IMG/VR virus record: IMGVR_UViG_2695420478_000017
Span: 1-7,390 of that record
Length of the DNA: 7,390 nt
Origin: a virus
Taxonomy: Duplodnaviria; Heunggongvirae; Uroviricota; Caudoviricetes
Reading direction: 5' to 3' (one strand)
Shown in pieces: positions 3,643 through 6,003 of this stretch (position 1 is the stretch's first letter; each line of letters starts with the position of its first letter). The notes beneath the pieces were generated by a model. It searched no databases, was not told the DNA's origin, and saw only the letters and a program-made list of their open reading frames with translations. The position numbers and the translations under genes are program-made.

Positions 3643-3864
3643 ATGGCAGACATCATTGATTCAGCATCAGAAATTGAAGAATTACAGCGCAACACAGCAA
3701 TAAAAATGCGCCGCCTGAACCACCAGGCTATATCTGCCACTCATTGTTGTGAGTGTGGCGATCCGATAGATGAGCGAAGACGCCTGGCTGTTCAGGGTTG
3801 TCGGACTTGTGCAAGTTGCCAGGAGGATCTGGAACTTATCAGTAAACAGAGAGGTTCGAAGTGA
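3643..3864 (+). CDS. TraR/DksA-family C4-type zinc-finger protein (73 aa), likely RNA polymerase secondary-channel binder
   Basis: Translation carries CCECGDPIDERRRLAVQGCRTCASCQ, i.e. two Cys pairs (CxxC...CxxC) near the C-terminus with an acidic N-terminal segment, the layout of TraR-like phage and plasmid proteins. Confidence 0.7.
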   Translation: MADIIDSASEIEELQRNTAIKMRRLNHQAISATHCCECGDPIDERRRLAVQGCRTCASCQEDLELISKQRGSK

Positions 3865-4631
3865 GCGAAATTAATTATCAGGCACTGCGTGAAAAGGCAG
3901 AAAAAGCAACTAAAGGAAGCTACATCGTAGGGCATACATCTGTTAATCGGCATGGCAATTTAACAGGAGTTTTTGTTTGTCAAAAATGGAAAGGAGAACC
4001 CGGTGGCGTGATTGCAGAATGTCACGTTAACTGCCTGGTTGAAACAGATGCTCAGGCTTATGCAAACGCTGAATTCATAGCAGAGGCTAACCCGGCTACC
4101 GTGCTGGAACTGCTGGATGAACGGGAAAGAAACCAGCAATACATCAAACGCCGCGACCAGGAGAACGAGGAGATTGCGCTTACGGTTGGGAAGCTGCGTG
4201 TTGAGCTTGAAGCAGCAGAGAACAACCTTATTGATAGTGAATGCCATGTTGCTGAACTGGAAGAAGCTCTACGCGATAAGCAGGCGTTACTTGAAGCCTC
4301 AGAAAAGCGCAACGCAAAATTACAAAGCGAGAATGCATACATCCGCAACCGGTACAAAGAACTGGACCTATTAATCGGGAAAAACATTCTGGTCATGCAG
4401 GCTGCCATTATCGAATGGCAGGCAACTGGCGACGCTAAGAGCGGACTAGCATGGATTTATAACACACTGTTTGGCCCTGGCGAATTACCGGACGAATCTG
4501 AGAAAGATGCTCAGGCCTACTTTAATCGCAAATATGCACCGATTGACGAAAATCTCATGGAGCTTCACAAGTGGTTTTGGGAACAAAGTGAAGCCGAGCG
4601 CGCCGCTGGCATTCGCATCAAAGGAGAGTGA
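3861..4631 (+). CDS. Ea22-like protein (256 aa), GTG start overlapping the upstream stop
   Basis: N-terminus MSEINYQALRE, central LELLDERERNQQYIKRRDQENEEIALTVGKLRVELE coiled-coil segment and C-terminal AGIRIKGE resemble lambda Ea22 as recalled; GTGA overlap with the TraR-like gene; SD-like AGAGAGG upstream. Confidence 0.7.
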   Translation: MSEINYQALREKAEKATKGSYIVGHTSVNRHGNLTGVFVCQKWKGEPGGVIAECHVNCLVETDAQAYANAEFIAEANPATVLELLDERERNQQYIKRRDQENEEIALTVGKLRVELEAAENNLIDSECHVAELEEALRDKQALLEASEKRNAKLQSENAYIRNRYKELDLLIGKNILVMQAAIIEWQATGDAKSGLAWIYNTLFGPGELPDESEKDAQAYFNRKYAPIDENLMELHKWFWEQSEAERAAGIRIKGE

Positions 4632-4632
4632 T

Positions 4633-5280
4633 ATGAGCGCTATAACCAAAGATCGACTACTGACAATCAAGCAGTGGCGCGAAACATACGGACCGGGTAG
4701 CAACGTTGTACTGCCAGCAGAAGAAGCGGAAGAACTGGCACGAATTGCGCTGGCATCACTGGAACGCGAACAGATTCGCCACGAGCATGCCAAATGGTCT
4801 GACTCCACATTTGGCTGCGTTGGCCCCATTGGTCCGCTGAAACATCTCTCAAAAGAGGCACTGGAAGCCGCAGCCGAACCAGACGATCTTAGCGAGTGGG
4901 CTGATATGCAGTTTCTGTTGTGGGATGCACAGCGCCGTGCTGGCATCAGCGATGCTGAAATTAACGTTGCTATGGAAGATAAATTGAAGATCAACATGGA
5001 GCGCCAGTGGCCTGAGCCAAAAGATGGTGAGCCTCGCTTGCACATTAAAGAACCCGGCAACTCTCCGGTAACTCCTGATGGTTGGATAAGCTGTAGTGAG
5101 CGAATGCCGGATACCAAAACAGCCGTTCTTGTTGCCAGGGAGTTTGACAGGAAAGGTGACTGGCGAATGAAATGGGCGACTTACATCCCGGGGCATCCTG
5201 ACGCTAATGATGGGTGGATAATTCCTGGTGCGTCGTGGAAACCGTCACACTGGATGCCGCTACCAGAGCCTCCCCTTTGA
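4633..5280 (+). CDS. Two-domain protein (215 aa): MazG-like all-alpha NTP pyrophosphohydrolase-like N-domain (DUF550-type) plus DUF551-like C-domain
   Basis: Track ORF 4471-5280 trimmed to ATG 4633, which has SD AAGGAGAG and sits 2 nt after the Ea22-like stop. N-terminal motifs (EEAEEL, HAKWS, STFG, LKHLSKEALE, EWAD, INMERQW) and the C-terminal WISCSERMPD ... SHWMPLPEPP pattern match those families as recalled. Confidence 0.6.
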   Translation: MSAITKDRLLTIKQWRETYGPGSNVVLPAEEAEELARIALASLEREQIRHEHAKWSDSTFGCVGPIGPLKHLSKEALEAAAEPDDLSEWADMQFLLWDAQRRAGISDAEINVAMEDKLKINMERQWPEPKDGEPRLHIKEPGNSPVTPDGWISCSERMPDTKTAVLVAREFDRKGDWRMKWATYIPGHPDANDGWIIPGASWKPSHWMPLPEPPL

Positions 5281-5376: not shown

Positions 5377-5556
5377 ATGTCTTGTCCAAAATGCGGTTCT
5401 GGAAATATTGCAAAAGAAAAAACAATGCGTGGATGGTCTGATGATTATGTGTGCTGCGATTGCGGATACAACGACTCTAAAGACGCATTTGGAGAGCGTG
5501 GTAAAAACGATTTTGTCAAAATTAATAAAGAACGCGAAGGCAACGAAAAAAGCTAA
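5377..5556 (+). CDS. Small zinc-ribbon protein, 59 aa (CPKCG ... CCDCG)
   Basis: Track ORF 5344-5556 trimmed to ATG 5377, which has a strong SD GGAGG at 5365-5369 (7-nt spacing). Two CxxC-type motifs: MSCPKCGSGN ... YVCCDCGYN. Confidence 0.55.
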   Translation: MSCPKCGSGNIAKEKTMRGWSDDYVCCDCGYNDSKDAFGERGKNDFVKINKEREGNEKS

Positions 5557-5619: not shown

Positions 5620-5644
5620 AAGCCGCCTGATGGCGGTTTTTTTT
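5620..5644 (+). terminator. Intrinsic terminator (ccgcc / tgat / ggcgg + 8 T)
   Basis: GC stem at 5623-5627 and 5632-5636, extendable by a G-U and two A-U pairs, followed by TTTTTTTT at 5637-5644. Confidence 0.6.
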
Positions 5645-5658
5645 ATTGGAGACAAGAA

Positions 5659-6003
5659 ATGTCAGATTTGGCTATGAAGGTTTTGAAATGGCAATCGACT
5701 GGCGATGTTGGCATCAGTAGCGCAACTCTTGCCTCAATCGCATGTGGACTGAAAAAGAATATCTATGGTCATCACTTCGGCGCTCCCCATGACGCAGCCG
5801 ATTTCAGACGATGCGTTGCACTTGTTGAGCAGATTCCAGAAATCAGAGATTCATTCAACAAGGTTGCAAAGCGCGTTCCGGCATTCAAAGGAATCCTCAA
5901 CGAATGGGATTCCCTCGTTGCTCTGTTGAAGTCTGAAATGAAGATACACGGAAACAAAGCACCAGAGACTTACAGAAGAATCAGCGAGCTACGCAAGGAC
6001 TAA
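5659..6003 (+). CDS. Hypothetical protein, 114 aa, unknown function
   Basis: Clean ORF with SD GGAGA at 5648-5652 (6-nt spacing); bracketed by a terminator upstream and a hairpin plus terminator downstream. Product not recognised. Confidence 0.6.
   Translation: MSDLAMKVLKWQSTGDVGISSATLASIACGLKKNIYGHHFGAPHDAADFRRCVALVEQIPEIRDSFNKVAKRVPAFKGILNEWDSLVALLKSEMKIHGNKAPETYRRISELRKD

Follow-up and report, generated by a model that had tools for sequence, protein, structure and literature searches.

An EaA-type protein of a lambdoid prophage with a MazZ-type (DUF550) domain and a DUF551 domain of exchangeable core

Introduction

What is understood of MazZ-type enzymes comes solely from phages whose DNA is built with 2-aminoadenine. 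In MazZ of phage S-2L, Mn2+ ions are bound by E34/E35/E38, E50/D53 and E38/E50, and the pocket is closed by K76, N80, W85 and A92-H95 of the partner chain (PMC8342488). R83 of MazZ faces the beta-phosphate, D60 contacts the 2-amino group of guanine, and E34 is, according to the authors of that study, not conserved among MazZ-1 homologues (PMC8342488). The Pfam family PF04447, formerly DUF550, takes its present name from the enzyme of Acinetobacter phage SH-Ab 15497, which is reported to convert dGTP and dATP to monophosphates and pyrophosphate and so to feed PurZ in the synthesis of 2-aminoadenine DNA (PMC12884076, PMC8342488). This catalytic domain, its active site intact, is also found in E. 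coli genomes and in numerous virulent phages of Klebsiella and mycobacteria in which a Z pathway is lacking.

A second family, DUF551 (PF04448), has been termed a 'portable domain' (PMC10834534). Here we describe a gene of a lambdoid prophage in which DUF550 and DUF551 are joined in one protein, referred to below as the target, and compare it with the closest described systems.

Results

The window, by which we mean the whole stretch of 7,390 nucleotides analysed here, is the early-left (pL) operon of a lambdoid prophage. The gene order begins with an Nmad5-domain ORF, cIII, kil, gam, bet, exo, a DUF1317 gene (orf60a type) and a DUF1382 gene (orf63 type), and continues with an orf61-type ORF, a TraR/DksA zinc-finger ORF (orf73 type), an Ead/Ea22-like gene and the target. 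On the 3' side of the target lie, in this order, an Eag-type zinc-ribbon gene, a 114-aa ORF, xis and int. Between the target and the upstream genes of the pL operon, the sequence shows neither a promoter-like nor a terminator-like site. Therefore, the target should be a delayed-early gene that is silent in the lysogen. The TGA of the Ea22-like gene ends at 4631 and abuts the ATG of the target at 4633. Since this stop codon is combined with a Shine-Dalgarno-like sequence 6 nt 5' of the ATG, the two genes are probably translationally coupled.

The coordinates 4633-5280 and the C-terminal HWMPLPEPP that the first-pass annotation had given are exact: the ORF starts with ATG at 4633, its stop codon ends at 5280, and the 215-aa product ends in HWMPLPEPPL (Table 1). 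An identical CDS is present in E. coli NZ_CP148357.1, where PGAP names the product 'dATP/dGTP pyrophosphohydrolase domain-containing protein' (WP_001274529.1). A longer TTG-initiated ORF from 4471 was rejected as superfluous, since it runs across part of the upstream gene in a different frame; the PGAP locus corresponds to 4633-5280 exactly. A search of NCBIfam with the target gave zero matches, and all PHROG matches of the target are labelled 'unknown function'. The identical RefSeq protein already bears the name that the first-pass annotation proposed, and EaA of Salmonella phage P22, the classical homologue, shares its architecture, so that at the level of annotation the finding is known.

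Table 1. Coordinates in the window of the target gene, its parts and one further gene of the operon
Feature	Position	Strand	Evidence or remark
TraR/DksA-type zinc-finger protein gene	3643-3864		same operon as target
Shine-Dalgarno-like AAGGAG, 6 nt 5' of target ATG	4621..4626	+	direct sequence reading
Target EaA-type CDS, 215 aa + stop codon	4633..5280	+	identical to PGAP CDS WP_001274529.1
N-terminal helical module, aa 1-47	4633..4773	+	separate PHROG matches
PF04447 (former DUF550), MazZ-type (d)NTP diphosphohydrolase domain, aa 48-143	4774..5061	+	Pfam E=2.3e-41
First metal-binding motif E75-A-L-E78 (MazZ E35, E38)	4855..4866	+	alignments A1, A7
Second metal-binding motif E88-W-A-D91 (MazZ E50, D53)	4894..4905	+	alignments
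R124 codon (MazZ R83), proposed transition-state stabiliser	5002..5004	+	alignments
Conserved junction and 5' edge of DUF551, aa 144-159, ...SPVTPDGWISCSERMP	5062..5109	+	95% mean identity
PF04448 (DUF551), small all-beta domain, aa 150-214	5080..5274	+	Pfam E=2.5e-21
Exchangeable DUF551 core, aa 160-205	5110..5247	+	25% mean identity, 2.0 bits entropy
Conserved 3' edge of DUF551, aa 206-215 HWMPLPEPPL + stop	5248..5280	+	85% mean identity

The first-pass annotation read the protein as a MazG-like DUF550 domain followed by DUF551, and Pfam agrees. PF04447 matches the target at 140.4 bits (cut-off 23) over profile positions 1-96 of 97, and PF04448 matches at 76.7 bits (cut-off 22) at the C-terminus of the 215-aa protein; both scores greatly exceed what chance would give. 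The enzyme domain had been placed in the 'N-terminal 150 aa'; its identity stands and its extent does not, as the domain covers aa 48-143 only and aa 1-47 are a separate, variable helical module. PF04447 is also matched above threshold, and independently of the target, by S-2L MazZ (PDB 7ODY; 44 bits) and by the SH-Ab 15497 enzyme (33 bits), so that a solved family member with defined catalytic residues is available. As the target and MazZ each pass PF04447 and their catalytic residues align, the refuting condition named in the earlier annotation, a lack of any similarity to MazG-like folds, does not refute it.

Residue conservation was followed in two alignments, one of five sequences (the target, P22 EaA, mycobacteriophage Toto gp110, MazZ and the SH-Ab 15497 domain) and one of nine, in which four phages of Klebsiella, Paracoccus, Pseudomonas and Rhodococcus were added (seven host genera, 28-75% identity). 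Thirteen columns are invariant in both alignments: E75, E78, D85, E88, D91, L95, D98, G104, A113, K117, N121, R124 and W126. E35, E38, E50, D53 and R83 of MazZ align with E75, E78, E88, D91 and R124 of the target, and D60, K76, N80 and W85 align with D98, K117, N121 and W126. R124 sits within the motif K117-x3-N121-x2-R124-x-W126, and R135 and H137 are the counterparts of R94 and H95 in the second-subunit pocket of MazZ. Every family-conserved metal ligand, the transition-state arginine and the guanine-contacting aspartate are retained in the target. In a set of 119 distinct domain sequences of enterobacterial origin, each key residue is conserved in 117-119 members and each metal ligand in 118-119 (E75 in 119, E78 in 118).

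From this homology we infer that aa 48-143 form an active MazZ-type diphosphohydrolase, whose activity, substrate and oligomeric state would correspond to those of its relatives. The SH-Ab 15497 enzyme is reported to act on both dATP and dGTP, and it shares the aspartate with which MazZ contacts guanine N2; therefore, substrate specificity is unreadable from the sequence. A catalytically dead sensor or scaffold that binds nucleotide without hydrolysis has a precedent in KomB of the Kongming system, an inactivated NTP pyrophosphatase that serves as sensor. The catalytic site of KomB is mutated, however, whereas the metal ligands and the transition-state arginine of the target are intact and essentially invariant, and we consider a KomB-like role very improbable.

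Membership of PF04447 is shared by the target, MazZ and the SH-Ab 15497 enzyme, and this might suggest that the target is part of a 2-aminoadenine (Z-genome) pathway and supplies dGMP to PurZ as MazZ does. The window contains neither purZ nor datZ, and the same holds for the regions that flank the identical locus of E. coli; in Z-phages, datZ, mazZ and purZ are adjacent. A Z-genome role is therefore excluded for practical purposes, and we rate it as extremely improbable. P22 and the lambdoid phages are also classical A-containing phages. Among viral DUF550 homologues, moreover, the Z-phage proteins are reported to form a monophyletic group of their own (PMC12884076).

In hhalign, the target-family profile matched MazZ with E=5e-4 over target aa 51-138, with a probability of just 31%. 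An HMM search with a profile of close relatives alone (A3) found nothing and did not reach 7ODY, and a single-sequence search of PDB sequences with the target gave no match. A match to 7ODY by a profile that contains MazZ was set aside as circular. The full-length AlphaFold model, built with 75 close homologues, has low confidence (pLDDT 50); it is all-helical over aa 6-123 and was excluded from fold searching. Because this model is poor, the link to the MazG-HisE fold rests on curated-family membership and residue agreement, that is, on sequence. The canonical MazG families of Pfam gave no match to the target at E<=0.1, and MazZ itself has a sub-threshold match to PF12643 (18 bits). By these searches, the kinship of the target with canonical MazG is at the superfamily level only.

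The DUF550 module is present in 501 of 5426 complete E. coli genomes (about 9%). It occurs without DUF551 in 93 of the best 120 DUF550 matches; standing alone in many prophages and phages, the domain is self-sufficient. Broad profile searches with DUF550 and with DUF551 returned solely close enterobacterial relatives among the matches listed (best 120), and the alignments were not widened with them.

The variable part of the N-terminal module covers 4633-4731, and a conserved 'ELARIALASLERE' junction begins at 4732. DNA homology to other loci also begins at 4732, and this boundary recurs in five loci. The module is present in two alternative versions among related loci, and aa 1-54 of the target match other PHROGs (phrog_3323 and phrog_660).

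An AlphaFold2 model of aa 143-215 gave a beta domain with a mean pLDDT of 91.5 and a pTM of 0.79. A PDB fold search with this model gave no significant match, and its matches in BFVD are other DUF551 proteins only. Nominally significant matches of the DUF551 profile to designed 'Cake' propellers in the PDB were rejected, since their total scores add up identical blades, with no more than about 4.6 bits per repeat. The alignment for the model was built from trimmed representatives of 50% clusters. An exhaustive search with aa 143-215 found 793 clusters (50% identity) at E<=0.001. In nearly all representatives among the matches listed (150 of the 793 clusters) DUF551 is at the extreme C-terminus, in proteins of 50-418 aa. 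When 137 DUF551 representatives were scanned with Pfam, DUF551 was the sole domain in 129; five also had Ead_Ea22, two had DUF550 (one of them the query) and one had a calcineurin-like phosphoesterase domain.

DUF550 is often found without DUF551 and DUF551 often without DUF550, which makes the fusion optional both ways. To judge from this distribution, DUF551 is a promiscuous C-terminal module and no dedicated partner of the enzyme. The earlier view of the fusion as a functional unit was not borne out, as DUF551 is promiscuous and exchangeable and DUF550 is commonly found without it. Because DUF551 is joined to unrelated proteins and has a conserved frame around a variable body, we infer that it may be a binding or targeting module outside the catalytic machinery.

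The variability of DUF551 is confined to its middle part. Mean identity to the target, taken over its 120 closest homologues, is 97% in DUF550 (entropy 0.10 bit), 95% in the 5' edge of DUF551 (...PVTPDGWISCSERMP) and 85% in the 3' edge (HWMPLPEPP), and falls to 25% in the core (2.0 bits). The same homologues contain 55 distinct cores of 38-65 aa, which belong to at least 16 mutually unalignable types. Every core type tested gave an end-to-end Pfam match to DUF551 with its edges (44-82 bits), whereas the isolated core gave 18 bits or nothing. This indicates one family that is recognisable mainly by its edges. In six loci, DNA homology ends at 5108-5113. It resumes at 5246-5248 in three loci and runs into the downstream Eag-type gene at 97-99% identity, also in P22. 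Between the target and P22, DNA identity is 71% in DUF550, 91% in the junction and 97% in the 3' edge and eaG, and the core has no detectable similarity. Some relatives contain an extra module of about 55 aa with the repeated junction PV(I/T)PDG on either side, and the tail of one relative is not of the DUF551 type.

Of 5426 complete E. coli genomes, 645 contain the core of the target. It often lies within Ead/Ea22-like genes, those of O157:H7 included, or within genes for DUF551 only, with 97-98% DNA identity. The full-length combination of modules was found in just 52 of the 5426 genomes, though each part is common. PGAP annotates an 'incomplete pseudogene plus shorter CDS' in five related loci. 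Frequent gene disruption was rejected as the explanation, because all five are open in one frame; the pattern is an annotation artefact.

Discussion

Our data indicate that the target belongs to the EaA family of delayed-early lambdoid proteins and consists of an N-terminal module, a putative MazZ-type purine (d)NTP diphosphohydrolase domain and a portable DUF551 domain. Together with a role in the nucleotide pool, this is the explanation that we consider probable. Transcription would be as part of the pL operon, in which the Ea22-like gene precedes the target and the Eag-type zinc-ribbon gene follows it. By analogy with MazZ, aa 48-143 would most likely form a homo-oligomer with active sites at the subunit interfaces, each completed by a second subunit. 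Mg2+ or Mn2+ would be bound through E75, E78, E88 and D91, and a purine (d)NTP would be hydrolysed to yield pyrophosphate and the monophosphate. Among the candidate substrates (d)GTP is the most probable, perhaps along with dATP. DUF551 (aa 150-215) would act as a portable domain whose edges, N- and C-terminal, are conserved and whose core is exchangeable. As to the role of the protein, we favour adjustment or sanitation of the purine nucleotide pool in the early phase of lytic growth, and this is the weakest step. Hydrolysis of dGTP looks counter-productive for a replicating phage, which counts against it, and to our knowledge no PurZ pathway that consumes dGMP exists in lambdoid phages.

Modular exchange at the domain level has long been described for lambdoid phages. 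The target appears as a clear example of this mosaicism and adds no new principle. Its only mildly new element is the hypervariable DUF551 core, which is most simply explained by ordinary mosaic recombination. The cassette-like behaviour of DUF551 offers a clean handle on whether this common phage tail domain is a binding module. A different reading takes DUF551 as a diversifying recognition cassette, in which a fixed 'clasp' (GWISCSERMP ... HWMPLPEPP) holds a rewritable beta surface and steers different early phage proteins, in this case a purine (d)NTP pyrophosphohydrolase and in others Ea22-type proteins, to a variable host or defence target. If this were true, the DUF551 allele would set the host factor or immune system beside which the enzyme acts. 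We think it quite unlikely that DUF551 works in this way.

The first-pass annotation had also suggested, as a hypothesis, that the enzyme might counter nucleotide-depletion or nucleotide-signalling defences. In such a case the target might destroy an alarmone or immune signal of the guanine or purine polyphosphate kind, for example (p)ppGpp or dITP, rather than bulk (d)GTP, and the diversity of DUF551 would reflect an arms race with the host. The MazG-like protein Atd1 of a phage is reported in a preprint to deplete (p)ppGpp and to protect against TIR-STING toxicity, but the sole assayed PF04447 enzymes act on (d)GTP or dATP. A cyanophage MazG is reported to be unable to hydrolyse magic-spot nucleotides (PMC6850273). 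dITP is an immune signal in the Kongming system. However, the known anti-Kongming factor is a dNMP phosphatase and not a MazG-type enzyme, and we rejected a role of the target enzyme against Kongming dITP signalling as unsupported. A gene for a TraR/DksA-type zinc-finger protein shares the operon, and stringent-response mimicry is therefore already a theme of the region. The hypervariable core of DUF551 would fit an arms race, yet its diversity has the appearance of old alleles swapped at fixed breakpoints, as in ordinary lambdoid mosaicism. The PADLOC models of defence components gave no match to the target, and the sole precedent, Atd1, is a MazG-like protein of non-DUF550 type. The counter-defence hypothesis thus found no direct support, and hydrolysis of an alarmone or immune signal is unlikely in our judgement.

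Removal of damaged or non-canonical nucleotides is the classical role of MazG-type NTP pyrophosphohydrolases (PMC10014863). The target could accordingly clear 8-oxo-dGTP, dITP and 2-oxo-dATP that form when oxidative or SOS conditions induce the prophage, and so guard new phage DNA from mutation. Expression early after induction, as judged from the pL position, would suit this task, and a link to H2O2 tolerance has been described for YfdS, a DUF551 protein. That link concerns DUF551 and not the enzyme domain, however, and the reported substrates of MazZ and of the SH-Ab 15497 enzyme are canonical, namely (d)GTP or dATP. We regard a house-cleaning function as distinctly improbable, and retain a MazZ-type purine (d)NTP diphosphohydrolase with a role in the purine nucleotide pool as the preferred explanation. 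In the literature searched we found no experimental work on enteric EaA/DUF550 proteins, enzyme assays included. The target thus marks a gap in the biology of non-Z DUF550 enzymes and of DUF551.

The closest described relative of the target is EaA of Salmonella phage P22 (NP_059588.1, 317 aa), which has the same N-terminal helical module, PF04447 and a C-terminal PF04448. The gene eaA occupies the same slot, between eaD/eaI (Ead/Ea22-type) and eaG/eaC/xis/int. The DUF550 parts share 79% protein identity, but P22 EaA exceeds the target by about 100 aa and has an insert on either side of DUF550. S-2L MazZ is like the target in PF04447 and in the aligned metal ligands, R83, D60, K76, N80, W85 and C-terminal R-x-H strand region, with about 29% identity, and the position of MazZ E34 is K74 in the target. 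Unlike the target, which has extra N- and C-terminal modules and lacks a Z-cluster, MazZ is a 105-aa stand-alone protein encoded in a datZ-mazZ-purZ cluster. The DUF5664-DUF550 protein of SH-Ab 15497 shares PF04447 and the same invariant catalytic columns (about 27% identity); it has an N-terminal PF18909 fusion and not a C-terminal DUF551, and its gene adjoins purZ and an HD phosphohydrolase gene. Atd1 belongs to the same all-alpha NTP pyrophosphohydrolase superfamily and, in the preprint, is a (p)ppGpp pyrophosphatase with a proposed anti-defence role. By its description it is the catalytic domain of a canonical MazG and, unlike the target, lacks DUF551. The Ead/Ea22-like proteins of Stx/O157 prophages ('Ea22 V2') and YfdS of CPS-53 have a C-terminal DUF551 as in the target, but their N-terminal parts are unrelated and consist of a coiled-coil Ead/Ea22 region or are absent. 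The phenotype of ea22 is pro-lysogenic. For yfdS, the phenotypes are sensitivity to H2O2 and, together with yfdQR, suppression of over-initiation.

Results

The EaA-type gene, in which DUF550 is followed by DUF551, has relatives at E. coli loci that are annotated differently. At five of these loci (L006, L008, L009, L010 and L011), PGAP splits the EaA-type ORF into a short 'incomplete' pseudogene fragment and a shorter downstream CDS. Gene disruption was ruled out, since translation gave one intact, uninterrupted frame in 5/5. The pseudogene calls are therefore a systematic annotation artefact, due to an alternative module in the variable N-terminal part of the protein. In L006, L009 and L010 (at about locus positions 1800–2000), an additional module of ~55 aa (LSTVCAEAYQVVGVMADALGVF...) separates DUF550 from DUF551 and has the PV(I/T)PDG junction directly repeated on either side of it. 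The C-terminal tail of the L006 protein is different and is not of the DUF551 type.

Features surrounding the EaA-type gene in the window
Feature	Position	Strand	Assignment
Nmad5-domain ORF, 181 aa	25-570	+	PF18757 match; slot of lambda ea10
TraR/DksA C4 zinc-finger protein, 73 aa	3643-3864	+	lambda orf73 type; PF01258, E=8e-9
Ead/Ea22-like gene	3861-4631	+	aa 145-243 match PADLOC model DpdH
Eag-type small zinc-ribbon gene	5377-5556	+	PGAP: 'Eag protein'
Terminator-like hairpin, then T-run	5620-5639		directly downstream of Eag-type gene
114-aa ORF	5659-6003	+	between Eag-type gene and xis

Downstream, the Eag-type gene and the final 33 nt of the EaA-type gene show 97% DNA identity to the eaG region of Salmonella phage P22, against only 71% for the DUF550 DNA next to them. 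In Pfam, the Eag-type product had matches below threshold to the Lar family (restriction alleviation) and the HVO_2753 family (zinc binding). The window is 100% identical to E. coli NZ_CP148357.1 up to position 5642, right past the hairpin, so that a mosaic boundary coincides with this hairpin. Beyond the boundary NZ_CP148357.1 has torI and then host genes, and the integrase is absent there. The 114-aa ORF had no match in Pfam (E ≤ 0.1) and none in PADLOC.

Upstream, the C-terminal half of the Ead/Ea22-like protein matched the DpdH model with E=6.7e-35, and no Pfam domain was found in this segment. DpdH is a component of the Dpd island for 7-deazaguanine DNA modification and defence. At the left end of the window, the 181-aa ORF matched 'Nucleotide modification associated domain 5' (Nmad5) in Pfam with E=5e-51, the match being limited to profile positions 45-206; PGAP names its E. 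coli counterpart simply 'hypothetical protein'.

Discussion

With the TraR/DksA-type protein, the operon would combine a regulator mimicking the ppGpp/DksA pair with a homologue of a guanine-nucleotide pyrophosphohydrolase, a co-occurrence that is suggestive. With respect to the Nmad5-domain ORF, Dhillonvirus phages can escape from the Tmn defence system via one missense change in an Nmad5 gene (PMC11846954).

In the CPS-53 prophage of E. coli K-12, yfdR adjoins the gene for the DUF551 protein YfdS, and YfdR is an HD-domain protein described as structurally homologous to the nucleotidase YfbR (PMC4776307). DatZ proteins of Z-genomes, the 2-aminoadenine phage genomes, are assigned to the YfbR-like family, PF12917 (PMC12884076). 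DUF551 thus occurs next to, or in one protein with, relatives of each of the two nucleotide hydrolases of the datZ-mazZ-purZ cluster, the DatZ-like and the MazZ-like, an association that may be a coincidence.
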